From: Candidatus Heimdallarchaeota archaeon
GTDB taxonomy: Archaea > Asgardarchaeota > Wukongarchaeia > Wukongarchaeales > JBHIFL01
Direction of reading: 5' to 3'
NCBI GenBank assembly: GCA_046761065.1
Contig: JBHIFL010000036.1
Coordinates: 1 to 44,397 of the forward strand
Length of the DNA: 44,397 bases
The notes under the pieces are model-generated. The model worked only from the letters and a program-made list of their open reading frames with translations. It ran no database searches and was not told the DNA's origin. Positions 10,333 to 43,703 of the stretch are shown piece after piece. A program made the position numbers and the translations under genes. The stretch's first letter is position 1; each line of letters opens with the position of its first letter.

Positions 10333-10851
10333 GTGCAACCAAAACTGAAGGTGTTATGCATGATGAAAACATGGACTGTTGTCCTTGAAGGCACAACCAA
10401 GGACATTGCAACTGAAAAGCTCACCTTTGAGATGATCGATCACAAAGAATTTTCCCACGCCCCTATTATTTTAAAAGAAGACTGGTTGGTTGCCGTCCTC
10501 AATATTGCAGCAAAAATAGAGGAATATCGCGTGAAAACAGTACTGACCACGGTGCTTGGACCACAACAAGAGAATTTTAAAGACCAGAAGGTTCTCTTTG
10601 TTTATGCACTTCTGAAAAAGAACGAAATTCCCCTCACATTTCTTCTCGGCGCCTTAAAAGAGGGAAGCCATATGGTTCTGGCTATCTGGCCACGTCAATT
10701 TGTTGAAATTGCCAAACAATACCCCGAGAAAGAGCTTGTGCTATCCAGTTTGATTCAGATCGCTAAAAATTCTGAGCTCTTTAAGTTCGTCAATATTTGT
10801 GGTTGGTTTTCGAAGGAAAACAAAACTTTTCCTTCACCTTATGCTTCCTAA
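10333..10851 (+). CDS. Hypothetical protein
   Basis: 172-aa ORF with host-like composition and no motif recognised. Confidence 0.6.
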   Translation: MQPKLKVLCMMKTWTVVLEGTTKDIATEKLTFEMIDHKEFSHAPIILKEDWLVAVLNIAAKIEEYRVKTVLTTVLGPQQENFKDQKVLFVYALLKKNEIPLTFLLGALKEGSHMVLAIWPRQFVEIAKQYPEKELVLSSLIQIAKNSELFKFVNICGWFSKENKTFPSPYAS

Positions 10852-11421: not shown

Positions 11422-12468
11422 CTATGGCCTTTGCGTGTGTCTCCGGGTTAACAAATAGCTGAGCCCATACGTTGCCCCCAAACTCGCATAAGCAGCGATC
11501 AAGAGACTACTGATGAGATCGTAATTAGCCCACAGGGCCAGCCTAAGTCCTAAAAGAAAGATCGTTATGCTAAACATCCACTTGGTAATCTCACGTGGGT
11601 TTTCATCTGGCATAAGAGCCATACGCTCGCGCCGTGGGGCTTGGTTCAAGCCAGGGAGCTCTAATTTAGGGGCTTGACCTTCACAAGTGAGGCTGCAAGG
11701 CAATTCGGTGTTTTCAGTCCCACCTGATTCCACTAGGTGGCCTGTAGTGATTACCGATTTCCCCCGATTTCCAAACGCCATTCGCGCGGGAAGCCGCTCT
11801 GGTCCCTCACCGTTCCCCACCAGCTCGTGTTCGGGGATGAGGACGCTTCCTGGGTGATCATCCGCTTCGTCTGCAACCACCAGGCCTTCTAGGAGAGCGA
11901 ACTCAGCGGCTTCTCTCTTTCCCTTAAACCTAGAACCTCTCGATAAGTCTAGATCAGAGTTTTCCGCAGCTTCGCTCGAGGACTCTTTGCCTTCGCTTTT
12001 CAGTGCTAAGGGATCGAGAGCCTCGTGCTCTGAGGTAGGGGCTTCTGGCGCCCCTTCACCTCCGATATCAAGCCTAGTACCACTCGAGACGCTTCCCCGC
12101 GCCTCCGGACCTCCGGTCTCAAGCTCATCTCGCTTCCTTGCCGGATCAGAGAGGACTAAGCCTTTAAACTTCTGTTTGGCATACCGGCTCCGCCCATACT
12201 TGCGGGCAATTCGCTTATGAGAATCCGGCACCACCCGACCCGGATCGGAGAACCCGGCCTCCCACGAGGTTCCGGAAAAGATGGCCACATCTATAAGAAT
12301 CACCTGCGTATCGGCATCCTTAAATCGCCACGTGGTCTTTGTCGCAAGCCCCCGCCCCGTCTTCGGGGAGTATCCGGTCCATGTGAGGATTGTTAACGTG
12401 TCCTCCTCCAGCTGGACCGCGGTGCCGTTAGGTTTTGGCTTCGGAACCTCCAACCTTTCACCTATCAT
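11422..12468 (-). CDS. Hypothetical protein with a low-complexity middle region and two C-terminal TM helices
   Basis: 348-aa ORF with a purine-rich SD (GGAGAGGGGAG) upstream. C-terminal hydrophobic pair WMFSITIFLLGLRLALWA / LISSLLIAAYASLGATYGLSYLL. Confidence 0.65.
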   Translation of the reverse strand: MIGERLEVPKPKPNGTAVQLEEDTLTILTWTGYSPKTGRGLATKTTWRFKDADTQVILIDVAIFSGTSWEAGFSDPGRVVPDSHKRIARKYGRSRYAKQKFKGLVLSDPARKRDELETGGPEARGSVSSGTRLDIGGEGAPEAPTSEHEALDPLALKSEGKESSSEAAENSDLDLSRGSRFKGKREAAEFALLEGLVVADEADDHPGSVLIPEHELVGNGEGPERLPARMAFGNRGKSVITTGHLVESGGTENTELPCSLTCEGQAPKLELPGLNQAPRRERMALMPDENPREITKWMFSITIFLLGLRLALWANYDLISSLLIAAYASLGATYGLSYLLTRRHTQRP

Positions 12469-12599
12469 GGAGCTCTCTCCCCTCTCCTGCTTGGTTGATT
12501 GTTGTGGGCGTTCTCCGTCATGGAAACCACTCTTCTGTCTCCCCGGAAGACCCTCGGCGTTTCTCTAGGCAACTTCCCATTCCCAACTTCATTTCCCGT

Positions 12600-12778
12600 T
12601 ATTATAGCCTTCCACAGTACCGTATTGCAGCCCTACAGTACCGTATTATAGACCTCTACAATATCCCATACTCACTATTGTAGCCCTACAGTAACTCAGA
12701 CCCACCTATTGTAGACCTCTACAGGACGGTTTGTAGACCTCCACATTATCTTACCTACGCGTATTGTAGACCTCTACA
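12600..12778. repeat. Array of 7 palindromic direct repeats, consensus TATTGTAGACCTCTACA
   Basis: Copies start at 12600, 12623, 12644, 12676, 12707, 12730 and 12762. The core TGTAGA-CC-TCTACA is an inverted repeat (short variant TGTAG-CC-CTACA). Linkers are 6 bp or 15-16 bp. Confidence 0.9.
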
Positions 12779-12839
12779 TTATCTCATTACTCACCACTTT
12801 GACTATGATTGCCCCGTTCCAAATGACATGAGTCGGGGA

Positions 12840-13496
12840 TTACTCCTCACCCCGTAATGGGGCTTCCTCTAATGTCACCTGACGCTCGAGGGTAGCTGCC
12901 TGTGGGTCGATGATCGCATACCGCCGCTTCAGGGCACTCCGCGGCTCCCCGGTCCAGTCACTCACCCCACACACCTGCCGGTGCGGATCGCTTACGGGGA
13001 CCTGGAAATGGGCGGTCACCAACCAGTCGTCTCGGCTCAATGGGGGGAGGGTGTCGGGGCGTTCCTCCCGCAGTTGCGCCTTCAGGCGGCGCAGGGCATG
13101 GCGAGTCCTTCGCCCCTGGTTGGCCGCAATCGCACGTTCCAGCCCGATCCCGTCGCCATGCACCACCAGGACGTAGTTGTCCCTGCACCAGAGCCAGGCG
13201 TGCGGCTTGAGGATCAGGCCCGATTGCCAGAACTTGGTCATGATGCTGGCGTCGTGATTCCCCGGGAGGAGGAGGGTCCGTTTCAACAGGCCCAGCTCCT
13301 GTAACTCATCCCGCAGCGCGTAGAAGAGGGCGAACACCTCCTCCACCTGCCCGTACTTCAACTCCAACGTGTCTCCGGCTAGGATCAGCGTGTCAATCTC
13401 CTCGCACCGCCGCCGGATCTCCGCCACCCCGAGCTCGTAGTGGGATCGCGGGTTGCCAAGATGGAAATCCCCGAACATAAAGATCTTTTTGGACAT
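12840..13496 (-). CDS. Calcineurin-like metallophosphoesterase
   Basis: GDFH, AGD, GNHD, HGD and AH motifs. The start was reassigned to ATG 13496 (MSKKIFMFGDFH), preceded by a GAGGTGG SD. Confidence 0.88.
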   Translation of the reverse strand: MSKKIFMFGDFHLGNPRSHYELGVAEIRRRCEEIDTLILAGDTLELKYGQVEEVFALFYALRDELQELGLLKRTLLLPGNHDASIMTKFWQSGLILKPHAWLWCRDNYVLVVHGDGIGLERAIAANQGRRTRHALRRLKAQLREERPDTLPPLSRDDWLVTAHFQVPVSDPHRQVCGVSDWTGEPRSALKRRYAIIDPQAATLERQVTLEEAPLRGEE

Positions 13497-13513
13497 TTCG
13501 CAAACCACCTCTT

Positions 13514-15832
13514 TTACACCACCCGGCGGAGGACCTGGCGGAGAGTCCCATGGGCCCGCGGGGAGTACCCGCGCACTAGGGCCCGCAACCACACACACGC
13601 CTCGCAGTACATGCGACACCGGCAGGTGGTGAGGTTGTTTCGGGTCACCTCCAGGATCGCCTTGAGGTGCTCAAAGAGCTGTTTGCTCGCCCCGGTGGGC
13701 CCGCCCCGGTCGAAGATCAGCAATTCATAGCCCCGCCGGCGCTCATCGCCGAGGGGAAGGACGTCCAACTCCCCGGGGTCGAGGGCTAACTCCTCCTTCG
13801 CCGCGCGGAGCACGGCCGCGCCGAGGTGGAGGGCCTCGTGGAGGGTGAATCGATGGCCCTTGAGCCGGATCGTGAGCCCTTCCGTCCGATACAGCGCATA
13901 CCGCCCCCCGCTCTCACTCTGCTTCTTCTCCACGAGTTCATGGGTCTGGAGATTTCGGGTAATTAGGGTCTTCACCACTAGCAGCATCTCGAGTTCCCCA
14001 AACCACGCGACCACCCGTCCTCGTGGATGGGCCGCCCATGTCCCCCACCCCTTCCGGATCTCTCGTTCAACCGGATTCTTAGAGTAATATCGTTTGGTCG
14101 TTTCTTCCACAATGACCTCCTCTCTCGTGACCTCGACCACTTTCCAGACTCGCTTCCCCAGCAGTAAATAGTTCCCCGGCAGACCAGTTTGCGCTACCTT
14201 CTCGAGGTCAATGTACCCCACTAGCTTCCCGCTCCGGGTTCGCACCCGTAGCTCTGGCAAGGCAGTCATTAGCCCCAACGTGAAAAACACCTCCTCACTC
14301 TTCTTGAGATGCGTCTGGAACTCCCCCTCCGTCCGCTGGACGAGCCCCTCAGCCAAGTAGTCCGTCAGGACTTCAGTGACCTTCTCGTCCAGGTACTCCG
14401 GTTGGGTGAAGGGGAAGAGCCAGGTAAAGTCCTGCTGCGTGAGCCCCAGCGCCCCACACAGGAACAGGGCACTCCGAAGGAGCTTCTCGCTGAAGTATGT
14501 GTAGTCGACTGGTTCAGGCTCAAGCCGCTCCACCAACTCCTGTAACTTGTCCCGGTGTTCCAGATAGTAGCTGTCCATCCGTCCCTTGATCGTGAGAAAC
14601 CAGTACACCTCCCCGGTCTGCTCGGGATGCCGGGCAACCCGCATGATCTCTTGGTGCAGCCCTCGTTTGCCTCCACTTGGGAATCCGAGGATAATCAAGA
14701 GTTCCAGGTGACCAAAATTGAGCCCGGCTTCCACCGCCCGCGTGACTAATAAGCCCCGCACCTGCCCTGCTCGGAACCGCTGCAGCATCTGCCGCTTCTC
14801 AGCCCAGGGTAAGTCCCCGTGGATGATCCCAAAATTACAGGCTATCAGCTCTTTCAGGACCGCCGCCCGTTCCAGCAGGAATTTGTTATCCGCATAGATC
14901 ACTACCTGCTTGCCGGCATAGATCGTCCCCCTTTTTAAGTGATCCAGAAACCGATCGAACACCGTGATTCTCCCCTCCGTCCTGTCCACCCGCCCCGTGT
15001 CCAACCCGTACGTATAGAGCCGGATGGTCCCATGCCGGGCCTTCCCCCGCACCACCGCCGCGTTATCCAAGAGCTGCTGGGCTAACTCCTCCGCATTGGG
15101 GATGGTCGCACTGTTGAACACCACCCGGAGCGGCTGCTGCGTCACCTCGGCATTGTATTTCTTGAGGATCCGATATACGGCGAGCAGGTACGCTAGGCTG
15201 TACCCGCTATAATAGTCCACTTCATCACAGACCAGCATCCAGGGGCTGGTTAGTGTCCGCACCCACCCCTCCTCTCCCCAAACAAGGGCCCGGTACAACG
15301 TGTCCTTCCACATGTACAGGGTCATCAGGAGAATGTCGAGCTCCCCCCGACTTGCCGCCTCCCGGATCTTCCGGCGCTCCTTCCGATTCAGGTCGGTCGT
15401 GTACCGCGCGATGCGTAACTGCCCGTCCATCAGGGCCGCATTGTGCTCCCGGAACCGGGCCTCTTGATCGAACAGCAGAGCGTTGTTCGGAAACAGGTAT
15501 AAGGCGACCCGCCCTGCCGCCGCAAACCCCTCGCCATCTGGGTCCCCCGTCCCCCGCTCGCGTTTGAGGTTCTCTTCGCAGACCACGGTGTACGTCACCT
15601 CGGTCTTCCCTGTCGCGGTCCCCGACGCATTCACAACGTCCCGCTCCTCTACTACCCGCAAGAAAGCCTCCTGGCTCTTGAACACGCTCCACCCATAGAT
15701 CGCCTCGATTCGAGGACCTACATGGGGGAGGAGCTTAGCCCACGGGGTGACGCTATCCTCCCCATCCGAGCGGGGATACACCGCCTCCGCCAATAGGTTC
15801 TTCAATATCAATTCTTCAGTCATCCTCTTCAC
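13514..15832 (-). CDS. YprA/Hrq1/SftH-like SF2 helicase with C-terminal DUF1998 (MZB) Zn-binding domain
   Basis: Motif I SGTATGKT, Ia FPNNALLFDQ, II DEVDYYSG, III SATIPN, V EAGLNFG, VI QEIMRVAR. C-terminal IFDRGGPTGASKQL...CRCRMYCEAC. Confidence 0.85.
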   Translation of the reverse strand: MKRMTEELILKNLLAEAVYPRSDGEDSVTPWAKLLPHVGPRIEAIYGWSVFKSQEAFLRVVEERDVVNASGTATGKTEVTYTVVCEENLKRERGTGDPDGEGFAAAGRVALYLFPNNALLFDQEARFREHNAALMDGQLRIARYTTDLNRKERRKIREAASRGELDILLMTLYMWKDTLYRALVWGEEGWVRTLTSPWMLVCDEVDYYSGYSLAYLLAVYRILKKYNAEVTQQPLRVVFNSATIPNAEELAQQLLDNAAVVRGKARHGTIRLYTYGLDTGRVDRTEGRITVFDRFLDHLKRGTIYAGKQVVIYADNKFLLERAAVLKELIACNFGIIHGDLPWAEKRQMLQRFRAGQVRGLLVTRAVEAGLNFGHLELLIILGFPSGGKRGLHQEIMRVARHPEQTGEVYWFLTIKGRMDSYYLEHRDKLQELVERLEPEPVDYTYFSEKLLRSALFLCGALGLTQQDFTWLFPFTQPEYLDEKVTEVLTDYLAEGLVQRTEGEFQTHLKKSEEVFFTLGLMTALPELRVRTRSGKLVGYIDLEKVAQTGLPGNYLLLGKRVWKVVEVTREEVIVEETTKRYYSKNPVEREIRKGWGTWAAHPRGRVVAWFGELEMLLVVKTLITRNLQTHELVEKKQSESGGRYALYRTEGLTIRLKGHRFTLHEALHLGAAVLRAAKEELALDPGELDVLPLGDERRRGYELLIFDRGGPTGASKQLFEHLKAILEVTRNNLTTCRCRMYCEACVWLRALVRGYSPRAHGTLRQVLRRVV

Positions 15833-18800
15833 CTCTTCCTAGAACGTCCTTGGATCACCGGGGGTTCCGCTTTATCATATTCCCACCCCCGTTTGAGCCG
15901 CTCTTCTATGGGGCTCAGGACCTCACTCAACTCCTCTAACACCTCCCCCACTGATAACCATGGTATGTCCACCACCCTCTTGTACCACAATCCGATTTGC
16001 TTCGGAGTTTCGATGAGGAGCGTCCGGAGTTTCTTCACCGGCTCAAGATCCTTCAGCTGTGTCGGAATCGGAATAAACGGCTGATACGGCCCTGGCTGGT
16101 TCTTCTGAAGACATTCGAGCAGGTGCACCACATGCGCCGCGTGGGCTTCCGCCAGAGGTCGGACTTCTCCTCGGTACCAGACTGCCTCCTCCAGAAAGGC
16201 CGTGACCAGGGTCTCCAGCACCCGGCTCCCCCACGGCGTCGGCGCGCACCGGGGGAACCCTTTTGGAGACAGATGCTCCTGAAAGTGCTCCGCCGTCAGG
16301 TCCTGGCCCAACAAGGCAAAGATTATCCGGTTCCCGAGGAGCCGCTGACTGGGTTCTTCCAGATCCAGATGGGCTGCGAGCGCGGGGTTGTCATGGACCT
16401 TGTGGGTGAACAGTTCCACCGTCTTGTACCCCAAGCACAGGTCTTCATACTCGGTTTCGGCATTGCTCGCCCGGAGGGTGTTCCGCAAAATCTTGCTGCC
16501 TCGGTTTTGGGCCGCATCCAGCTTCGTTTTCCCGGCCGCCGCGTGGGTGGGCTGGTAGTACAACCGGTCGCCTTTCCGCCCAAATGTCCGCCCAATTCCT
16601 TCCCGCACGATCTGTTCCCCCGGCCGGGTCCTATACAAGGTCTCCCGGACATATTTCTCCACTTCCTGGGCAAGGCGCCCCTCACACGCCATAAATGCCG
16701 CAGGACTGAACTTCCGGTGCTTCACAAACTGCTGTAAGATCCGCAGTTGAGCCTTCAGTACCGCCTTCGCCCCCTCCTGCAACTCTGCCGACCCCTCCAG
16801 TAACTCCAGCGTCGCCACCACATAGCTGACGAGGAGCCCCCAACCATACTTCCGCCGGAACGTTTCGAACCATGGACATTCTTTCAGAACTTTGACCAAC
16901 GCCTTACTCACCTCGGGGTGGCGGGGCGGGCTGAGCCCCAGAAAGCGTACCGGGATCCCCCGCGCTTCTAAGGCCGCGACCAGGGCCGCATCGGTTTGGA
17001 CCATGACATATACATTGGGGAGGGGGAACTCCTCCGTATAGTTGGAGGGGTACATGACCACCAGCCGGTCCCCTTCAATGTGACCCTGACAGTCCCAGGT
17101 CACATACACGAAATCGGTCGTCTGTGGGGCGTGTTCCGGCAGGTCGGGGTCCAGACTCGAATAGTGACGAACCAGCCGGCAGATCTCCACCCGATAATCC
17201 ATCTGCTCGGCCGCTCTCCCATCTATGCGCCCCTTGTACCGCGCCCCACAGCCCTGACAGACAGCGACCCGGCCAACTTTCGGCTCGCGGTCCAGCCACC
17301 CATCACACTCCGGCCGCCGACAGGGCCACCCCTCGATCCGCCCTACGGGCCCAAGCTTGGCGACTTTCTCGAACCCCTCCAACGGGAGGAGCCGCCCCTG
17401 TTCCCGGGGGACATACCACTCACACGCCACCGAGTTCGGTGTCACCACCCCATAGGTCGCCCGCATCTCCACGCGGAGGATCGCGGCCGGGAGGAAATTT
17501 CCCCCTTTCTTCTGCAAGTTGTACCATCCCGAACAGCTCCGGTCGTTCCGTTCATACATCCCGCATTCCCCGCAGACTGATTCTTCACTCTCCAGCAACT
17601 TGAGCACCCCTCGAGCTTGGAGTCGACACACCAAGACCAAGAGGGGTCTCCCCCGCCCTATCGCCTGGGTGGTCAGCCGACAGGCTTGCAGCACTTGGAG
17701 CAGGCCTCGCGGCAGCGGGTCAAGCCGCTCCAGCAGTAGCCGTAGCAACTCTCCGAGCTCCAAGCCATTCCCTGTCGGGAAGTACAGATTGAGGAGATGG
17801 TTGACACTCCGGCTCGGAACCGCGATTTCCTGTCCCAGATCTTGGTACCACACGATCCGGCTCGGTTTGACTTGGGTGGCCTTGTCATGGAGCGGCGAGG
17901 TCAGGATTCCGTACAGATGGTCGGTGATTCGGACCAACGCGCTCTTGAAGCGGACTTTCTTCCTCGCTTGCCAATATTTGGCCTGCCCCTCGTCCTCCTG
18001 CAGGGCAGCGCCAAACCGCTCCTCGAAGGTCGGGATCTTGCAGTCCGGATTGATCCGACAGATCTTATAGACCTGCACCATGGCGCGGAGGGAATGTTGG
18101 GCTTGTTGGCCAAACGACACGCCTTTTTTGCCCCGGCTGGGTGCGGAGGTGGGCCATGGATCCTCTTCTTCCAACCCACCTTCAGCCATCCGCTCTACAA
18201 GCTTAATCTTCTGCTCTTCGGTCAATTCCGGGGATTTGAGGCTGGTGAAGAGCTTCATGTAATCCTTCGCCCGGCGATAATCTTTTGCAATCAGCGTCCC
18301 AACCTCCGTACATTGGAAATACCCTGAAGCTCGGACCTTCTCTTGCTTCTTCTTTACCCCACCCTTGCATGCCCGTTCGTCCTTCCCTCTACCCTCTTTG
18401 GCCCTGCACGCCCGCTTGTACTCGTCCCGCTCCTTGGACGCCACCGCACCTTGCTGGGGGGCGCGCTCTCCCTTTGCCGCCCCCAGGAGTGGCTCTTCAT
18501 CCGCCACTTCCGAGGGGCTCTCGCCTTCTGCTCCGGCTTGTTGCGTCATATCCTTCGCGCATATCCCCACAAAGGGGGCTTTCACACGGGAAGTACAACG
18601 CCGGACTAGCCCCACCTCATCAGCCTTGGCCCACTCAAACTGAGCGGCCGCCCGCTCCCAAAACTCCGCCAGCTCATCAATATAAGGGCCATCCGGCTCT
18701 TCTTTCGCTTTCCGAGCAAGCACAAAATACGGGTAAGCCTTCTTCACATTCCGTTCGAACTGCTTCTTCGTCTGCGGCCAGCGTAGGATCCCTAACACAA

Positions 18801-20250
18801 AATCCAAGTCGCGGTGCATATACCAAGGGTCGATCCGGGGGCAGAGTTCGAATTGCCGCTTCATCAACGCTTTCGGTTTCTTGCCCCCTTTGAAATTCAC
18901 CTGCACCAGCTGACCCCCAGGTTTCAGGAACGCTGCTACTCGCGCCAGCTCCACTCCACTGACGAACCGCTGACTGTCGACATAAATCACGTCCAGCTCG
19001 CTTTCCGGGGACTCGTTGAAGTCTAATTGCTCCTCAACCACGAGAAAGGGCTTCCCACCCTCCCACCACGTCTTCCCATCTTTGGAGTACCTCCCTCTCT
19101 GCCTCCATCGAGTCAGGGAGGGCACCCCAATATGAATCCCGGAGCCGGGCTCTGCCAGCTGGATGTCCGCCCCTTTCACTAACACGGCATAGGTCACCCC
19201 CGGCTCCAACATGATTTCATGGACGGAAAAGTCCACCCGACACTTCGTGAACGTCTCCGCATCCCTCCAGTACTTCGGATCGTCCTTGTCCAGCAGTACG
19301 GACGGGGTAAGGCGTTCCAGATGCCTCTCTTTGCCTACTTTATAGACGGAACACTCTAAAGCTCCAGTCTTCAGGACGCCGTGCGTTCTCACATAGACCC
19401 CGAAGTGTCCGAGGCGGGTTGGCCTCTCCACCTGGAACTGTTGTATCATCCGGTACTCACTCGATCGGAATATGAACTCCGCCTCCTCTGGCGGGTGGCT
19501 ATAGATACAGAAGCTCTCGGTTCCCAGCGCCTTGGCATGCTCCCAGAGCTCATCTAGTGTGCGGAAGGTGGCCTTCTTCGTTTCTTGCAGCTCATAATGC
19601 AACCGGCGGTGCTGCACCATGGTCGGCTCCAGCCCTAACGACTCCAACCACTTCCACAAACGCGTGGGTTCGGGATGGCTCACCAGGAATACCAGAGGGG
19701 GGCGTAATCGGGCGTATTTGGCGAGCCGCGTCACCACGTTTGAGGTTTGATCCCATTCTTGCCTCATGAGCTCCGCCTCCAGCCCCACTAGGAAAATCCG
19801 TTGAAGGCCGAGCCCCTGCCGCCCCATCTTCTTGATCCAGTTGGATAACGCCAGGGGGCCACTAAAATACACCTTCGTCTTCTCCACATCTTCCGTCTTG
19901 GTTTTCCCGAGCTCCGTCGCTTCATAAGCCTCTTTGAGGGCGAATTGGCTCGTGCTCAGGCGCGCCAGCGCCGCCCAGAGCCGCCGCTTCAGGTAGCCCG
20001 GACTAACGATCAGGTAGCTGTTCCCTTTCCGCACCCGTTTTACCCCTCCCTCGTCCGTTGCAATTTCCACATACGTACGCTTGTCCTCAATCGCGAAAAA
20101 TCGGATCAACCCTTTAAGGATATCGCCAAAGCGATCCTTCCTCGGGTCACTGTACACCATACACCTCGATTTGTCGAGTAACCCATAAGCCAAGCTTGGA
20201 AACCCTTGTTCCGTCAGGTCTTCAAGGGGGTCGTCGATCTTTTCCGTCAT
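15829..20250 (-). CDS. cas1: Giant (1473 aa) multidomain protein with a C-terminal divergent Cas1 integrase domain, Zn-binding motifs and a probable degenerate helicase-like N-terminus
   Basis: The C-terminal region follows the Cas1 motif order: FMACEGRLAQ (cf. LMGIEGxAA), LDAAQNRG (cf. DPVNAxLSxG), LFTH...ALAAHLDLEE (cf. GFLH...SLALDLME), GSRVLETL...WYRGEVRPL...PYQPF (cf. GRK...Y.G...YxPF). Upstream CxxC pairs: CGEC, CRRPEC, CQGC. Confidence 0.75.
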   Translation of the reverse strand: MTEKIDDPLEDLTEQGFPSLAYGLLDKSRCMVYSDPRKDRFGDILKGLIRFFAIEDKRTYVEIATDEGGVKRVRKGNSYLIVSPGYLKRRLWAALARLSTSQFALKEAYEATELGKTKTEDVEKTKVYFSGPLALSNWIKKMGRQGLGLQRIFLVGLEAELMRQEWDQTSNVVTRLAKYARLRPPLVFLVSHPEPTRLWKWLESLGLEPTMVQHRRLHYELQETKKATFRTLDELWEHAKALGTESFCIYSHPPEEAEFIFRSSEYRMIQQFQVERPTRLGHFGVYVRTHGVLKTGALECSVYKVGKERHLERLTPSVLLDKDDPKYWRDAETFTKCRVDFSVHEIMLEPGVTYAVLVKGADIQLAEPGSGIHIGVPSLTRWRQRGRYSKDGKTWWEGGKPFLVVEEQLDFNESPESELDVIYVDSQRFVSGVELARVAAFLKPGGQLVQVNFKGGKKPKALMKRQFELCPRIDPWYMHRDLDFVLGILRWPQTKKQFERNVKKAYPYFVLARKAKEEPDGPYIDELAEFWERAAAQFEWAKADEVGLVRRCTSRVKAPFVGICAKDMTQQAGAEGESPSEVADEEPLLGAAKGERAPQQGAVASKERDEYKRACRAKEGRGKDERACKGGVKKKQEKVRASGYFQCTEVGTLIAKDYRRAKDYMKLFTSLKSPELTEEQKIKLVERMAEGGLEEEDPWPTSAPSRGKKGVSFGQQAQHSLRAMVQVYKICRINPDCKIPTFEERFGAALQEDEGQAKYWQARKKVRFKSALVRITDHLYGILTSPLHDKATQVKPSRIVWYQDLGQEIAVPSRSVNHLLNLYFPTGNGLELGELLRLLLERLDPLPRGLLQVLQACRLTTQAIGRGRPLLVLVCRLQARGVLKLLESEESVCGECGMYERNDRSCSGWYNLQKKGGNFLPAAILRVEMRATYGVVTPNSVACEWYVPREQGRLLPLEGFEKVAKLGPVGRIEGWPCRRPECDGWLDREPKVGRVAVCQGCGARYKGRIDGRAAEQMDYRVEICRLVRHYSSLDPDLPEHAPQTTDFVYVTWDCQGHIEGDRLVVMYPSNYTEEFPLPNVYVMVQTDAALVAALEARGIPVRFLGLSPPRHPEVSKALVKVLKECPWFETFRRKYGWGLLVSYVVATLELLEGSAELQEGAKAVLKAQLRILQQFVKHRKFSPAAFMACEGRLAQEVEKYVRETLYRTRPGEQIVREGIGRTFGRKGDRLYYQPTHAAAGKTKLDAAQNRGSKILRNTLRASNAETEYEDLCLGYKTVELFTHKVHDNPALAAHLDLEEPSQRLLGNRIIFALLGQDLTAEHFQEHLSPKGFPRCAPTPWGSRVLETLVTAFLEEAVWYRGEVRPLAEAHAAHVVHLLECLQKNQPGPYQPFIPIPTQLKDLEPVKKLRTLLIETPKQIGLWYKRVVDIPWLSVGEVLEELSEVLSPIEERLKRGWEYDKAEPPVIQGRSRKR

Positions 20251-20299: not shown

Positions 20300-20640
20300 A
20301 CCCCAAACCCACTTCTTCAATCCCTCTCAAAAACGCCGGAACGACCCCCATGGGCTCAACGGACTTGCTAAAAAGCTTTAAACATTTAAATACCATATAT
20401 ATGATCTATTATTTGGCGATACAAATCGTTGTGTGAGGGACTGCCATGAAGTCGATGAAAAACTCCCAGTTGGAGGGAGCTTATAATCCTTCAAATCCCA
20501 CCTTTTTCGCCCACCACAAAAATGCTGGAACGACCCCCGGGGAGTTAGCGGGCTTGCTAAAAAGCTTCAAACATTTAAATACCATATATATCCCAATTAT
20601 TGTGTGCTGGAAATCCATGGGTTAGGGAAATACCATGAAC
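20300..20640 (+). promoter_or_regulatory. Tandemly duplicated archaeal promoter/leader (189-bp period) in the divergent intergenic region
   Basis: GGAACGACCCC...CTTGCTAAAAAGCTTyAAACATTTAAATACCATATATAT occurs from 20338 and from 20527. It contains a TTTAAATA TATA-like box, and both copies continue ATTATT...AAATC...AGGGA...CCATGAA. Confidence 0.7.
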
Positions 20641-20655
20641 CCCAGCCTATTGCTT

Positions 20656-20844
20656 CCCTCGTCTGCTTCGGCAGCGCTCACAGGAGAGCCAGGTGCAACT
20701 CCTGGCCCTGTCGAGATGGAAGATCCGCGGAACAGCGATGAGCCTCCCGCTTCGTGGTGAGTTCCGCGCGAAATGATACATACTCGGCGGTGTGGACGCA
20801 AACTCCTTGGAAAGGGGTTTTTGTGCATCAAGGAGCGATAAACC
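20656..20844 (+). ncRNA. Candidate structured ncRNA, copy 1 (189 nt)
   Basis: About 83% ungapped identity to 23365-23553. Hairpins CTGC-TTCG-GCAG and GCCAGG-TGCAACT-CCTGGC (T-loop-like), plus stems with compensatory changes between copies. Confidence 0.7.
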
Positions 20845-22512
20845 GTGAATTCCAATAAATTAAAAACATCGGGTGGTTTCTCCTCCCCGCTAAGCCTCTT
20901 TGCCGAAGAATGGCGGCGCCAGGAGGCAATACCGCCTGAAACTGAGGATCTTGTCCAACGAACTGCCCACCACCAGCATCCAACGGTCCAAGAGTCCGTG
21001 GTGGAGAAGCTTCTCACCACCTTACAGGTGCAATACCTCCCCCGGTGGGTCTTTCGCACTGGCGCCGAAACCTTCATCTTTGATTTCTTGATCGAACCGA
21101 ACCTGGTGCTGGAGTGCACCTTGACTGCTCGGAAAGGGTGTGCGGAGTCTAAAGCGTGGTTAAAGGATCGCTCTACCATCTTTGAACGCAAATTCAAGGA
21201 GCTCAAACACCACAAGCCCCACTGCTTCACCGTGATTTTCCTCGAAGCGACGAGCTGCCGCCCCGAAGATCTGAGAGAAGGCATCCCCACCTTGCAATAT
21301 ACAGATCGGCTGATTACGTGCCTGGAGGAGTTCGAAGCGTTCTTGACTCAATGGAACCGCGCGCATGCAACTGAAAAACGCCGTTCCCCTCAGAAAACCC
21401 TCCTACCCCACCACAGCCCCAAAAACCGTCTTCTAGAGAAAGCACCCCTGCAACTGACACCGGTAACGGGCTTTCGGCTCCGCGCACAGTTTTATACGCC
21501 GATGACCAAGCCCCTCGGGGTCAATGTTCCCGGCAGCCCCACCAGTTACATGGTCGGCACGGCCCCCTTCCTCATTGAGACCTCCTCCGAGAACAAACTG
21601 GCCAGCCTCGCCAAAGAAATTACGGAAGAGACCTTGATGCGGCTCACGGTTAAGGAACTTCGAGATCTGCTGGCTTGCCTTCACGCCGCCAGTGGGGACA
21701 AACTGCCCAAATCGGGGACGAAACCGGTACTGGTCCAGCGCATCCTCGCTTCCCCCCACAAGACGACCGCTGTCCAGCGGTTCCTCGCCGACAAAGAGGT
21801 GACGGCCCAGCGAAAACGGGAACGCCTCGATGTGAAGCTCTTTACCAGCCTCCGGGGCGCGCTAAGACACGCAGGGAGAGAGATCCTGCACGCTCTCCGC
21901 CTCCCCTACAGTATGCCCGCCCTGTCCGAGGATAAGCTGCCCGAAGGCGCCCACCGCCCGGGAGAGTGCGTCGAGGCAGAACAGGAATGTTTGCTGTGCC
22001 GGGTCTTTGGCTCCCTGTCCCACCCCTCCCTCTTCCGGACCTACATTCCCCCGCTGGTGAATGACCCCGAGCACAAGTTAGCCACCCCGCAGGAAGTGAA
22101 TCATGTGTTTATCCGCACCCATGCCCGCAACGTCCACCGCCCTGATGGAAATACCCTCAACTTCAACCAGCAGTATTTCGCAGGCACATTCGTCGCCTAC
22201 CTTACGTTTCTTAACGGGCTCCCAGACCCGGTGGAGCTGGGGTTCCTCCTGAATTGCCTCGAACGCTGTGATGACGTGGGCGCCGCCAAGGCCTGGGGCG
22301 CGGGCAAACTGTTCCTCCAGTCCTACACCTTGGAGAAGGTCGAACGCACCTATCAGCGGGTATGGAACGGCAACGCCTACCAGATGACCCCAAAAACCAC
22401 GGTGACGCCCCTCAAAGCGGAACTCGACCAGGCGTGCGCTGCCTACACCCAGTGGCTGGCCCAGCTTCTGGCGACCCAGCGCGGAACTGAGGAAGGAGCG
22501 GTGCCTGCATGA
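20845..22512 (+). CDS. cas7: PD-(D/E)XK-like nuclease domain fused to a Cas7 (Csm3-like RAMP) domain with an inserted SAP motif
   Basis: N-terminal E...FIFDFLIEPNLVLECT. RAMP motifs GFRLRAQFYTP, TSLRGALRHA (cf. SSLKGALR), CLLCRVFGS (cf. CxxCRLFGS) and G-rich loop VGAAKAWGAGKL. SAP-like LMRLTVKELRDLL...LPKSGTKPVLVQRI. Confidence 0.78.
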   Translation: MNSNKLKTSGGFSSPLSLFAEEWRRQEAIPPETEDLVQRTAHHQHPTVQESVVEKLLTTLQVQYLPRWVFRTGAETFIFDFLIEPNLVLECTLTARKGCAESKAWLKDRSTIFERKFKELKHHKPHCFTVIFLEATSCRPEDLREGIPTLQYTDRLITCLEEFEAFLTQWNRAHATEKRRSPQKTLLPHHSPKNRLLEKAPLQLTPVTGFRLRAQFYTPMTKPLGVNVPGSPTSYMVGTAPFLIETSSENKLASLAKEITEETLMRLTVKELRDLLACLHAASGDKLPKSGTKPVLVQRILASPHKTTAVQRFLADKEVTAQRKRERLDVKLFTSLRGALRHAGREILHALRLPYSMPALSEDKLPEGAHRPGECVEAEQECLLCRVFGSLSHPSLFRTYIPPLVNDPEHKLATPQEVNHVFIRTHARNVHRPDGNTLNFNQQYFAGTFVAYLTFLNGLPDPVELGFLLNCLERCDDVGAAKAWGAGKLFLQSYTLEKVERTYQRVWNGNAYQMTPKTTVTPLKAELDQACAAYTQWLAQLLATQRGTEEGAVPA

Positions 22513-23450
22513 TCACCCGGCTCATTGCCGAGACCCTGACCCCGATTGTCGCCAAATCCCGGTTCTTGAACCTGCGTGGCGCCCGGGGGGTGGTCTCGAA
22601 TCGCCCCTATCTGGACCTCCCCGCCCCCACCCGCCATCGGTGTCGCACGACTCTGGTCGTGAAACAGGGGGAACACGGCCTTCTGGTCCACCTCCGCGCT
22701 CATATGGGCTACCTCCACGTGGATTTCAAGACCCGCACCCAAAAACAGGCCCGCCGCAACCTCAAGGCCTTCCTCACTCTCCAATCCGTTGGCCAGCTCA
22801 CTACCTGGGGCTACGGGGCAATTTGCTGGATCCTGCAAAAAGATTACCATGGCCAAGCGTCGGCTCGTCCGTTTGGCCCGCGGTTCCGGATTCTCAAGGG
22901 GTTACCTCCCAATCTGTCACCCCGTGAGCGCCAACTGGTTATGGCCGCGCTGCTCCATGACCTGGTGGACACGGCCCTCCACTCCTCCAAGTTGGGGTGT
23001 TCCGTCACGATCCCCGACCCCTACGTGCAGTGGTTGTGTGTCCACCATCATGCCTTAAAAGAGCATCCGGACAATTCGGATCTCCAGCTCATCCAAGAAG
23101 CCGACGTCCGCACCTCCCGGTATGCTCGGCTCCTCTCCCGACCAACCTCCCGCCGCAAGATGGCGCCCGTCAATACCCAGCAACTCACCCGCCAGCTGGA
23201 GCAGGCGGCCAAGGGCTCCATCTATAAACTTTATTCGGTCATCTATCATTCCCAAGAGTTAAATAGTCTGACTGCCTCTAAAGTCCATCCCACTGAAAGT
23301 CTCCGGAATCACTTGATTAGCACAGCCAACTGGACCCTCTTCCTCCTGCGCACCCGGCCCTCCCCCCTCTCCTGCTTCGGCAGCGCTCGCAGGTCAGCCA
23401 GGCGCAACTCCTGGCCCTGTCGAGACGGAAGATCCCCGGGCCCCAGATGA
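22509..23450 (+). CDS. cas5: Cas5-like RAMP fused to a circularly permuted HD nuclease domain
   Basis: ATGA overlap with cas7. N-terminal LIAETLTPI strand and G-rich loop VGQLTTWGYG. HD motifs ALLHDL, HHH and ADVRTS, with the usually N-terminal His placed last (SLRNHL). Confidence 0.65.
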   Translation: MITRLIAETLTPIVAKSRFLNLRGARGVVSNRPYLDLPAPTRHRCRTTLVVKQGEHGLLVHLRAHMGYLHVDFKTRTQKQARRNLKAFLTLQSVGQLTTWGYGAICWILQKDYHGQASARPFGPRFRILKGLPPNLSPRERQLVMAALLHDLVDTALHSSKLGCSVTIPDPYVQWLCVHHHALKEHPDNSDLQLIQEADVRTSRYARLLSRPTSRRKMAPVNTQQLTRQLEQAAKGSIYKLYSVIYHSQELNSLTASKVHPTESLRNHLISTANWTLFLLRTRPSPLSCFGSARRSARRNSWPCRDGRSPGPR

Positions 23451-23553
23451 GCCATCCGCTTCGTGGTGAGGCCCCCGCGAAATGACACGTACTCGGCGGT
23501 GTGGATGCGAACTCCTCTTGGAGGGGCTTTCGTGCAACAAGGAGCGGAAAACC
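23365..23553 (+). ncRNA. Candidate structured ncRNA, copy 2 (189 nt); overlaps the cas5-HD 3' end and the XPD start
   Basis: Direct diverged repeat of 20656-20844 (32 mismatches by my count, no gaps). The same hairpins are retained. Confidence 0.7.
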
Positions 23554-25559
23554 TCTTTCCTTATAGGCCGTATCCCGAACAAGTTCAGTTTATGAGCGAC
23601 GTAGAGCTACTAGCGCAGAAGGGGGGGGTCGGCTTATTTGAAGCTCCAACTGGGTTTGGGAAGACCGCGGCTACCCTGAGTGCCTTATTAGGGTATGTAG
23701 ATAAGCCAATTGTCTATCTGACACGTACACATAACCAGATGCGGCAAGTTGCCAAAGAGTTGCGAGAAGTCAATCGGCGGGGATGTGATTTCAAAGGGGT
23801 AGTCCGGGGATCCCGGCGATTTCTTTGTCTGATCTCAGAGGTGCGAGCCTGTGCAACAAATGCGGAAATGATTGAAAGTTGTCTTTCGCGGCTACAAAGT
23901 TCCGAAGGCGTGACTTTATTGGATTTTGTCGAAACAGGCTCAGCATCGGTTACTGGAAGTGACCTGCATCTACGAGTACGAGCAGATATGACCTGTTCAT
24001 TTCAAGGACGTACCATAGAGGTGCCGATAGATATTCCACAGGGGATTCCGGCAGTAGCAGATGTCGAGACGTTAGTTCGATATGGTCGAGAATTCCATAT
24101 TTGTCCCTATTTCCTTGCACGGCTCTTAGCCCAGAGTCGACGTGTAGTGGTTGGCTCGTATAAATACCTGTTCATTGGAGATCTGTCCATTAAAGGCGCA
24201 TTTCTGGTTCTTGATGAGGCGCACAACATTGATGCGTTATGTCGAGAGGCGTATTCGCTACAGCTTAGTCAAAGGAGTGTGGAGCAAGCAATTGCGGAAA
24301 CCCAAGAAGGCGAAGACTTTGGGGCCATCAACTGGGAGGAGCTCTCTATCGAGGTGCACGAGTTCTTCAAACGGGTGACCCTACCAAAGACAGAGACCGC
24401 GATATTAACGCAACAGCAAACACTAGATCTCCTCGAAGAGTATGGGCTCGGGGACAATTTTTTGAAAAGCGTGAAAGCTGCTTGGACGGATCTTTGTCAA
24501 CTACATGCCGAGTTAATGCAAATCCGAGGACGTGTCTTCCCCCTCGAGTCGCTTCGAACGCATTCCATCTTTACTTTTTTCCACCGGCTGATGGAGGACC
24601 CTCCCGAGCAATTTGTGGCGATTTTGGAGACACAAGCACTGAAAAGACTCGCATGGACATGTCTTGATCCGGCGCTTGCCTTTCGAGAGATTCGCGAGAA
24701 AAACCCCCATGCTATCATTTTAATGAGTGGAACATTGTCGCCGATGGTAAATCTAGGGCGTATGTTTGAAGTTGAGACGATCATACATGATTATCCTTCG
24801 ATTGTCCCTTTAAGGAATGTTCAAGTGCTCGTATTGAGGACAGGACCGTATGATGACCCCTTAACCTCCGAGTATAAACATCGAAATAACCCTGCGATTG
24901 GAGAAGCGTATGGGGAGACGATTCAGCAGATTGTTACTCAAGTACCTAACGGATCACTTGTCTTTTTTCCCAGTTATGGGTTTATGCGGCAATTGCTACG
25001 AGTTTGGAGTCAACAAGGGATCTTAGAGCGAATGAAAGACACGGGGTATGATCTCTTCTTTGAGACCCCGGAGGCAGGAAAATCCCTGATTGACAAATAT
25101 AAAGAACAGGCCCGCTCAGGCAACGCGGTGTTGTTTGCGGTGTGTCGAGGGAAACTTAGTGAAGGAGCCGATTTTCCAGATGCGACAGGGAGAGCGGCAA
25201 TCCTTGTGGGGGTTCCTTTTCCCGATCTAAGTGATCCGAAGGTCAAGGCACAGCGACAATACTATGAAAACAAAAGTCAAGGGCTCGGTGCAACATGGTA
25301 CTTGGATGAAGCGATTCGAACGGTGAACCAGACGCTTGGTCGTGTGTGGCGGCACCACCAAGACTACGCCCTTGGATGTCTTCTTGATGGGCGCTATTAC
25401 TGGCGATCAAATTTTGAAAAGATAAGTCCATGGCTGAGGTCACGAATGCGTTTCCAAACACGAGAAGACTCGTTTTCCTCTATTTTACATCGAATCAAGG
25501 CGTTTTTTAACAGAGCGGAGCGTCGCTATCACCATATTAGTTCCTCGAAGACCACTTAA
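23532..25559 (+). CDS. XPD/Rad3/DinG-family Fe-S DNA helicase
   Basis: Q motif FPYRPYPEQ, EAPTGFGKT, Fe-S Cys (RRFLC...C...C...CPYF), DEAHN, MSGTLSP, VFFPSY, RGKLSEGADF, GVPFP, QTLGRVWRH and LLDGRY. The likely start is GTG 23532 after GGAGGGG; the ORF track start is 23463. Confidence 0.92.
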   Translation: MQQGAENLFPYRPYPEQVQFMSDVELLAQKGGVGLFEAPTGFGKTAATLSALLGYVDKPIVYLTRTHNQMRQVAKELREVNRRGCDFKGVVRGSRRFLCLISEVRACATNAEMIESCLSRLQSSEGVTLLDFVETGSASVTGSDLHLRVRADMTCSFQGRTIEVPIDIPQGIPAVADVETLVRYGREFHICPYFLARLLAQSRRVVVGSYKYLFIGDLSIKGAFLVLDEAHNIDALCREAYSLQLSQRSVEQAIAETQEGEDFGAINWEELSIEVHEFFKRVTLPKTETAILTQQQTLDLLEEYGLGDNFLKSVKAAWTDLCQLHAELMQIRGRVFPLESLRTHSIFTFFHRLMEDPPEQFVAILETQALKRLAWTCLDPALAFREIREKNPHAIILMSGTLSPMVNLGRMFEVETIIHDYPSIVPLRNVQVLVLRTGPYDDPLTSEYKHRNNPAIGEAYGETIQQIVTQVPNGSLVFFPSYGFMRQLLRVWSQQGILERMKDTGYDLFFETPEAGKSLIDKYKEQARSGNAVLFAVCRGKLSEGADFPDATGRAAILVGVPFPDLSDPKVKAQRQYYENKSQGLGATWYLDEAIRTVNQTLGRVWRHHQDYALGCLLDGRYYWRSNFEKISPWLRSRMRFQTREDSFSSILHRIKAFFNRAERRYHHISSSKTT

Positions 25560-42868: not shown

Positions 42869-43193
42869 ATTGTCGAATTTTGTGATCGCTTCGATTTTAC
42901 CTCTCTCTACCCTCGACTCATGTCGAAAAGAGAAAAGCTGCTCGAACAAGTCGTCCACCGCCTCGTCTATCAGCTCTATGCCGTCATTTACCATTCAAAA
43001 GAATTACTACTTCACCTTCCCTGCTTCAGCACTCCCTCACAGACCAGTTAAGTGCGTATCTTGGTCCTATCGAAACAGAAGATCAGCGGAATATATATGA
43101 ACTATTTGTTGTGAGTCCCGTACGACATGACATGTACTCGACGGTGTAGACGCTAACCCTGCTCCCCGGGACTTTCGTGCACAAAAAAGCGAA

Positions 43194-43703
43194 TTACTTG
43201 CCCAACATCATACGTGAAAGAGTCAAAAACATCTGGTCGACACCTACTCCTGTCTTAGCAGATGTCTCGATGTATTGATGGTTTTTTTCCTTTGCATAGG
43301 TTTCAGCTTGTTCTCGAAGGACTTCCCTTTGATCGGTTAAATCAATTTTATTCCCTACAAGAATGAGAGGAATTGCACCAACATGGATGTAAATTTCATT
43401 AAGCCAGCCATCTAATGCCTCGAAGCTGGCCTTAGAGGTGATATCATAGCAAACAATTGCGCCATTGGCCCCGCGATAATAGTATGGACGCAAACGGCCA
43501 AGGAGTTCTTGACCTCCGGTGTCGAACAGTACTAATTTAATGGTTTGCTCTTGAATCTTGATAACTTTTGTTGCAAAGTCGACTCCCAAGGTAGGAATAT
43601 AGGTTTCACGAAATGTTCCTTCAGCAAAACGCTTGATAAGAGATGTTTTCCCGACACTTCCTGAACCAACGGATATCGTTTTAAATAAGTATTCAACACT
43701 CAA
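43194..43703 (-). CDS. Rab-like small GTPase
   Basis: YLFK, GSGSVGKTS, PTLGVDF, DTGGQE, YYRGANGA, GNKID, ETSAK. The start is likely TTG 43703, which avoids overlap with the upstream gene; the ORF track start is 43793. Confidence 0.92.
   Translation of the reverse strand: MSVEYLFKTISVGSGSVGKTSLIKRFAEGTFRETYIPTLGVDFATKVIKIQEQTIKLVLFDTGGQELLGRLRPYYYRGANGAIVCYDITSKASFEALDGWLNEIYIHVGAIPLILVGNKIDLTDQREVLREQAETYAKEKNHQYIETSAKTGVGVDQMFLTLSRMMLGK

Follow-up and report, generated by a model that had tools for sequence, protein, structure and literature searches.

The 44,397-nucleotide contig JBHIFL010000036.1 of Candidatus Heimdallarchaeota archaeon (assembly GCA_046761065.1), which was analysed over its full length and is referred to here as the window, raises the question of what two diverged copies of one short sequence are doing on either side of a pair of CRISPR-related genes. 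The repeat, of ~185 nucleotides (nt) and read on the + strand, is named element E. Copy 1 (20656-20844, +) lies in the 5′ leader of a SAP-Cas7-like gene, and copy 2 (23365-23553, +) is the right end of an island belonging to ARAMP, a catalogued system of Asgard archaea. An initial reading of the sequence alone had proposed that the repeat is a structured RNA, serving either as a guide scaffold or as a cis-regulatory leader. On balance we consider it probable that E is the structured RNA 3′ end of ARAMP cassettes in one Heimdall lineage, which supplies the ribosome-binding site of the next gene, possibly gates its translation and may be the partner of RAMP proteins.

Fold, strand and family of element E

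Copies 1 and 2 can be aligned along all 189 nt with no gap and are 83% identical, in agreement with the sequence-only reading, which was right that the pair is real but wrong in so far as it made the pair a property of this locus, as ~48 copies are dispersed through the genome. In the assembly searched (4.4 Mb, 234 contigs, 91% complete, 8% contamination) BLAST with E returned 24 matches, and iterated nhmmer of the whole genome gave 48, of which 22 are full length. Among the latter search's matches is a third window copy (43013-43200, +), a degenerate solo copy with neither a cas remnant nor a gene directly downstream. The 22 full-length copies form alignment A2, from which covariance model R1 was built; the model scores window copies 1, 2 and 3 at 206, 215 and 133 bits, respectively, and has 38 matches in the genome and 61 in the genome and fetched metagenome loci combined. 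Further copies are present on related Heimdall metagenome contigs. A CRISPR repeat (23-50 nt, with regular unique spacers) was rejected, as E is ~185 nt long and irregularly spaced, at intervals of 0.65 kb to tens of kb, with genes between copies. On contig C115 of the source genome, G000 (L026:1-10459), six same-strand E fragments lie within 10 kb, interleaved with small open reading frames (ORFs) that, judged by sequence, show a likeness to PIN, DUF433 and DUF5615 toxin-antitoxin proteins.

E was found in 1 of the 40 other genomes of the phylum that were searched. The sole match, L041:1501-1689, is on a 3.8-kb contig (G010 contig C257) assigned to a genome of a different family; cas5-HD, the gene whose 3′ end copy 2 overlaps, is not nearby, and the contig may be mis-binned or the copy a true solo. 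When GTDB genome contigs were scanned with a Cas5-HD profile, no relative was detected outside the source genome.

The hairpins that had been picked out from two copies, CTGC-TTCG-GCAG, GCCAGG-7nt-CCTGGC inside CAGG/CCTG, and CCGC-TTC-GTGG, are all present, and the compensatory replacements, of GGAAC/GTTCC by GGGCC/GGCCC and of GCAAA/TTTGT by GCGAA/TTCGT, hold over 22 and then 59 distinct copies. A structure of 59 pairs was written from the two-copy consensus fold. In the 22-copy alignment 80.7% of cells are standard pairs, compared with 38-47% in slid controls, whose 3′ partners are displaced by 1-3 columns, and the alignment scores 0.295 for covariation where the slid controls score 0.09-0.13 and shuffled alignments 0.22; no shuffle in 500 reached the observed values, a significance that the shuffle controls overstate because the copies are mutually related. 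The 59 distinct rows among the 61 matches give 80.9% paired against 36-46% slid, and a covariation score of 0.277 against 0.06-0.11, in an alignment that was fitted to the model and so favours the model's own structure. The CAGG/CCUG and GCCAGG/CCUGGC helices are 94% and 89-92% paired, with both-side changes in 4-5 of the six inner pairs, and a long-range CGAG/CUCG stem is among the best supported. Both sides have changed in all five pairs of the GGRNC/GNYCC stem and, in the larger set, in all 12 pairs of the 3′ hairpin. E is a multi-helix fold and not an end-to-end hairpin. G-U pairs are frequent (at one pair, GU in 40 of the 59 rows), and since these would read A-C on the opposite strand the fold is assigned to the + strand. 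The alignments of 22 and 59 copies and the G-U pairs together bear out the proposal of a structured element on that strand conserved by its pairing.

Selection on the element is also evident from its neighbour. Between cassettes E is 80% identical, whereas the coding sequence of cas5-HD is 74% identical and its third codon positions 55%, and E is the more conserved of the two in 34 of 36 cassette pairs. The fold has no counterpart in Rfam: there was no window match at gathering thresholds and none on the + strand of E at expectation values up to 10, the lone row overlapping the element being snoR9 on the opposite strand, at 15 bits against a 90-bit threshold. A tRNA and tmRNA search found none. 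Within the fold, the segments GAUGAGCCA and UGGUGA (20737-20745 and 20755-20760; element positions 82-90 and 100-105) flank an internal hairpin and adjoin a covarying stem; their letters are 80-93% conserved in the 61 copies, and the site is a candidate for what could be a kink-turn of the L7Ae-bound kind.

Element E in ARAMP cassettes and ahead of host genes

The genes between the two copies had been read as cas7 and cas5; the first name is likely, on weak profile matches, and the second stands with a Cas10-type HD domain added. The upstream gene (20845-22512, +) encodes a 555-residue protein with a SAP domain (Pfam, expectation value 6e-5) and, behind an N-terminal domain, a RAMP that, judged from its sequence, is likely Cas7-like. 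PADLOC matched it weakly to Csm3 (expectation value 0.005), all 13 of the weak matches of its profile to PDB sequences are RAMP or Cas7 proteins (0.28-1.3), and it has CxxC-FGS and G-rich loop motifs. The downstream gene, cas5-HD (22509-23450, +), encodes 313 residues, modelled with 21 homologues at a predicted local distance difference test score (pLDDT) of 76. Residues 1-114 form a Cas5/Csm4-like RAMP (Z 7-8.3 to Csm4, Csf3 and type VII RAMPs by VIA-align) and residues 137-287 a Cas10-type HD domain (Z 8.6 to that of Csm1/Cas10 over 126 aligned residues), Z values that lie near the noise band of the tool, in a match list composed almost wholly of RAMP proteins. H150, D151, H180, H181 and D199 are invariant among the Cas5-HD homologues.

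On the opposite strand, a 1473-residue protein (15829-20250, -) has a Cas1 integrase fold in its C-terminal 424 residues, which were modelled with 24 remote homologues at a pLDDT of 84.5. The top 50 Foldseek matches of this region are all Cas1 or casposase (best expectation value 7e-8, probability 1.0), and E, H and D/E residues are invariant in it; Pfam and PDB sequence searches with the protein were negative, and a protein atlas search gave no usable match. Beyond it lies a DEAD/DEAH helicase with an MZB (DUF1998) zinc domain (13514-15832, -; Pfam). No CRISPR array was detected in the 44-kb window by a repeat finder or TRF, and the homologues carry the NCBI name Candidatus Heimdallarchaeota, that is, they have an Asgard host. 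The bracketed genes, the Cas1 fusion and the helicase block are the catalogued ARAMP system. ARAMP was reportedly described by Makarova, Wolf, Shmakov, Liu, Li and Koonin in 2020 (CRISPR J 3:156). The passages on ARAMP in PMC8730458 and PMC12669027 present it as an array-less, type III-derived CRISPR derivative of Asgard archaea that usually has a distinct Cas1, and the former calls the mechanism and the use of RNA by ARAMP and its haloarchaeal cousin HRAMP enigmatic. The window block shares with these accounts the Asgard host, diverged Cas7 and Cas5 nearest to type III, the Cas10-type HD, the distinct Cas1 and the lack of an array, but differs in that a conserved structured RNA, also dispersed genome-wide, terminates each cassette. 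The protein system is thus known, whereas E appears undescribed: the same ARAMP summaries (PMC8730458, PMC12669027) mention no RNA component, in which the original 2020 description may differ from them.

In all ten cassettes examined (the window, source-genome contigs C25 and C4, and seven metagenome loci) E overlaps approximately the last 90 nt of cas5-HD. Copy 2 in the window covers the last 86 nt of the gene and adjoins an XPD/Rad3-like helicase gene of the host (23556-25559, +; Pfam DEAD_2 and Helicase_C_2), whose homology to a second genomic XPD begins exactly at the end of E. The sequence-only reading had held that the copies share no coding frame, which is true of window copy 2, shifted out of the conserved cas5-HD frame with its fold kept, but not of most homologues: in 16 of 20 the cas5-HD ORF continues in a single frame for ~85 nt (~28 codons) into E and ends in the tail ASAALAGQPGATPGPVEMEDP.

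The 3′ end of the element is AAGGAGCGAAAAAC, followed by ATG or GTG, and this conserved end contains an AAGGAG ribosome-binding site 9 nt ahead of the start of the next gene. In copy 1 AAGGAG occupies 20830-20835 and is followed by the GTG start at 20845; the suggestion that each copy ends at a GTG is correct for this copy, but at 23556, where the XPD-like homology behind copy 2 begins, there is no canonical start codon. Behind approximately 14 of the 23 best-kept genomic copies an ORF of 85 to more than 500 residues begins within 5-17 nt. The genes identified there by Pfam are those for GMP synthase (guaA), an Obg-like GTPase (ychF), PhoU_div, cyclophilin-like and MptE-like proteins, the C-terminal subunit of fumarase, a class III aminotransferase, ribosomal L18Ae, a MiaB-like protein, MCH, PFK, DUF371 and a radical SAM protein. 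E upstream of genes is always in the orientation of the gene, and the spacing from ribosome-binding site to start is fixed. The proposal of a cis-regulatory leader fits this anatomy; the role of E as leader of downstream genes is well supported and, of the two functions first suggested, better supported than that of a guide scaffold.

Some copies retain traces of a cassette. Remnants of cas5-HD, or of cas7 and cas5-HD, precede 11 copies and have varying 5′ cut points. In another ten copies the starts fall no more than 20 nt apart, with a 5′ edge at 23359-23380 in window coordinates. The gene ychF has a full island ahead of it at the related locus L089 and a remnant in the source genome, fumarase a full island in L086 and a remnant in the source genome, and the cyclophilin-like gene a cassette in L090 and remnants in L073 and the source genome; E is kept at the same host genes across genomes that are ~70-80% identical. 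The left flank of the ychF island showed no synteny with the G000 ychF site.

Function and spread of the element

The reading that we favour would work as follows. E is predicted to be cotranscribed with the cas operon; it overlaps the stop region of cas5-HD, continues into the next gene and provides that gene's AAGGAG ribosome-binding site. A GCUUC segment of E may pair with GGAGC at the ribosome-binding site, a pairing that would exclude the 5′ CUGC-UUCG-GCAG hairpin, and since the two exclude each other E could gate translation. Where cassettes decayed, or where E spread alone, the element would be left as the leader of housekeeping genes. The strict link with ARAMP, a conservation stronger than that of coding sequence, and the presence of a cognate but different RNA in a paralogous cassette suggest from sequence comparison that E is the RNA partner bound by the RAMP proteins, and the adjacent Cas1 fusion may be what moves the island or E. 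A covarying RNA that ends every cassette is a concrete candidate for the RNA partner of ARAMP, and its position as leader of about a dozen housekeeping genes suggests two possibilities, that a CRISPR-derived island controls essential genes or that there is an unknown form of Cas1-linked spread. Either outcome would be new to the biology of the archaea most closely related to eukaryotes.

It should be emphasized that several observations weigh against this reading, in addition to the limits of the two alignments given above. The pairing at the ribosome-binding site and the 5′ hairpin have about equal support across the copies. The conservation of the 5′ half of E could arise partly from the overlapping cas5-HD frame. 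Among public runs the locus occurs in DNA contigs only, from hydrothermal-vent and sediment metagenomes, with no RNA run. Finally, of the features that could account for the spread of E, neither terminal inverted repeats nor target duplications were found, and no RVT_1 reverse transcriptase was recognised in the genome, which is 91% complete. A stronger version of the proposal, in which E is the RNA subunit of ARAMP, and the Cas7-like and Cas5-HD proteins with the Cas1 fusion place the island or E before housekeeping starts so that translation proceeds only via the ribosome-binding site of E, is doubtful. If true, it would describe a mobile system that depends on RNA, is driven by Cas1 and keeps essential genes of its host captive.

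It could be argued instead that E is a guide scaffold similar to omega RNA, with the host flank as guide, and that Cas7/Cas5-HD and Cas1 home the island to empty sites. Omega RNAs are long structured RNAs that overlap the 3′ end of a nuclease gene at the junction of element and host, and solo and truncated copies are common. E, too, overlaps the 3′ end of cas5-HD at the exact junction of island and host and has solo and truncated copies; a Cas1-fold integrase is encoded next door, and the housekeeping genes at which islands and cassettes stand differ from one genome to another, with solo E at the same genes elsewhere. The junction, however, consists of a ribosome-binding site set at a fixed distance from a start codon and is not a free 3′ tail, and E contains no long variable segment resembling a guide. 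The wider likeness to the OMEGA systems (short for Obligate Mobile Element Guided Activity; PMC8730458), which include TnpB and IscB, is also incomplete, as the proteins here are class 1 RAMPs and Cas1 rather than RuvC nucleases and there are no IS200/605 ends; Pfam detected neither TnpB nor IscB in the island. Comparison of the island's upstream spacers with the XPD gene gave an 11-mer and an 18-nt gapped match, each with p ~0.03. The idea that an island RNA guides to its own flank was set aside for this locus, since in a 5 x 5 matrix of alignment scores the non-coding RNA regions of islands scored no higher with their own flanks than with those of other islands. A guide scaffold is conceivable, though we regard it as improbable.

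Another system considered, VIPR, has a RAMP-like Vipr protein with vrRNAs composed of tandem YNNGG (GGY/NN) repeats, nine or more in number, and is found in phages and bacteria (bioRxiv 10.64898/2026.04.26.720920). VIPR resembles the window cassette in having a RAMP-fold protein and, encoded up- and downstream of the protein genes, non-CRISPR structured RNAs, which in VIPR are ~100 nt long and used by the protein. The two differ in that three YNNGG units are present in 4 of the 61 copies of E and never more, which is the level expected by chance, so that E does not have the repeat series of a vrRNA.

The dispersal of E could also suggest a selfish, non-autonomous element, resembling a miniature inverted-repeat transposable element (MITE) or a short interspersed nuclear element, that uses the machinery of ARAMP or another source, folds for the sake of mobilisation and sits at sites that are simply tolerated insertions. 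The ~48 dispersed copies, many of them decaying, are in keeping with such an element, as are the sharp 5′ limit of ten copies, which resembles that of a discrete unit, the independent insertions of E at two places within related islands, and the continuum of 5′-cut forms with a fixed 3′ end. Besides the missing inverted repeats, target duplications and RVT_1, this explanation has to contend with the findings that E is constrained more than the neighbouring gene and kept at the same host genes across genomes, and that a fixed spacing to the start and a constant orientation are hard to obtain from tolerated random insertion alone; we judge it unlikely. The strict definition of a MITE does not fit the multi-helix fold, nor does it fit the flanks, whose longest common word is, for 31 of 32 copies, what chance would give. 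The sequence-only reading had named, as evidence that would count against it, a MITE or insertion-sequence end dispersed independently of the cas genes. E is indeed dispersed, but it corresponds to no known MITE or insertion-sequence end, and its dispersal is not independent of the cas genes because cas5-HD remnants accompany it. Intergenic repeats that are cotranscribed with genes, for example the Correia, ERIC and Rickettsia palindromic elements, consist of plain inverted-repeat hairpins and have target duplications. Like them, E is short, dispersed and located next to or inside genes (the latter in an L086 ORF), but it is multi-helix, has a fixed orientation and brings its own ribosome-binding site.

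The fixed 3′ end and variable 5′ ends of E could result from one-sided copying; alternatively, the pattern could reflect deletions halted by selection at E or at a TATA-like motif in cas5-HD. With reads mapped to the locus, contigs were seen to break at the repeats. An apparent circular junction (the 'goes back 2701' joint) was rejected, as it proved to be another genomic copy, the C15 remnant with its E, mapped at 90%. Casposons and Cas1-solo elements (PMC4046053) are comparable in having a Cas1-family integrase outside CRISPR adaptation and a block whose site varies among related genomes, but here no PolB, terminal inverted repeats or target duplication were found, and RAMP effector genes and a structured RNA are present. 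Aloposons (PMC8813620), which are giant-gene transposons at tRNA sites, were considered and set aside as unrelated.

If E were functionally unconnected with ARAMP and led the genes of a host regulon in the manner of a riboswitch, the cas operon would be just another unit under its control. Such a leader would be expected to have two folds that exclude each other, as E does, with the ribosome-binding site buried in one of them, and to precede many genes of metabolism and translation. Yet cas5-HD remnants travel with E, every cassette ends in it, the diverged cassette has a different RNA in that place, and its presence in a single one of the 40 other genomes of the phylum contrasts with riboswitch classes, which are usually broad. 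We consider this explanation very unlikely. That the similarity reflects conservation of the Cas5-HD C-terminal tail is highly improbable: although most homologues keep one frame open over the initial ~85 nt of E and some compensatory changes are synonymous in it, others are not, copy 2 keeps its fold out of frame, solo copies have no such ORF, and the 3′ 100 nt of E, past the stop codon, are as conserved as the rest.

Related islands and neighbouring sequences

The bracketing of the cas genes by two copies of E, the observation from which the sequence-only reading set out, is genuine in the window but not a fixed trait of the system. Comparison with L086 and L089, which are empty at this site, reveals an insert of ~215 nt at copy 1, its end 5 nt short of the start codon. 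In L086 the upstream copy lies between the N-terminal domain and the SAP-Cas7 part, with the ORF staying open across E, and in three islands, L070, L071 and L089, it is missing. L086 is 83-84% identical to the window over the Cas1, helicase and N-terminal parts and 71% identical over cas7, cas5-HD and E; since the drop in identity has its boundary at the internal E, the cassette appears to have been exchanged there. Contig C12 of the source genome (L039) carries a diverged paralogous ARAMP cassette with an unrelated repeat of its own, at L039:8475-8540 and 10632-10697; it stands inside an upstream ORF and at the end of cas5-HD, the same two positions that E takes. This repeat has four copies in the genome, the other two being on contigs C15 and C30. 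As a different repeat brackets the C12 cassette, bracketing recurs through independent events.

The TATA box noted upstream of copy 1 is present, as a TATA-like AAACATTTAAATACC ~70 nt upstream. It belongs to a promoter-like 98-nt segment that is duplicated in tandem with a period of 189 nt (20305-20402 and 20494-20591, +) and is single-copy in the related islands L086 and L089; from its letters the 20305-20591 segment is a putative promoter. A second TATA-like motif, TCTATAAACTTTATT / GTTTATAAACTCTA (codons S-V-Y-K-L-Y; 23222-23236, +), lies inside cas5-HD. It is kept in 19 of 25 copies, one non-coding remnant included, and the shortest cas5-HD remnants start just upstream of it; the motif could act as an internal promoter driving E and the gene behind it.

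The island is part of a GC-rich zone of the window (~11-24 kb, 55-63% GC against ~40% elsewhere). The block common to related islands has its left limit in a metallophosphoesterase gene (12840-13619, -; Pfam), and the homology of the window block with L086 and L089 begins at 12854. A 348-residue ORF (11422-12468, -) lies within the GC-rich zone and outside the common block, and drew no match from Pfam or PADLOC. Close to the island's left side an exact 14-mer, CCCCTCTCCTGCTT (12479-12492), equals the 5′ edge of E copy 2 (23364-23377), where ~0.05 such matches are expected by chance. In another island, L070, a gene with HNH and RRXRR domains (L070:4855-6378) is inserted between the cas7 operon and the small gene upstream of it. 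The palindrome TGTAGACCTCTACA occurs in four copies (12642-12787) immediately beyond the conserved island's left limit; a similar motif is found to the left of the island in L089, and the palindrome could be an operator or an end-recognition site.

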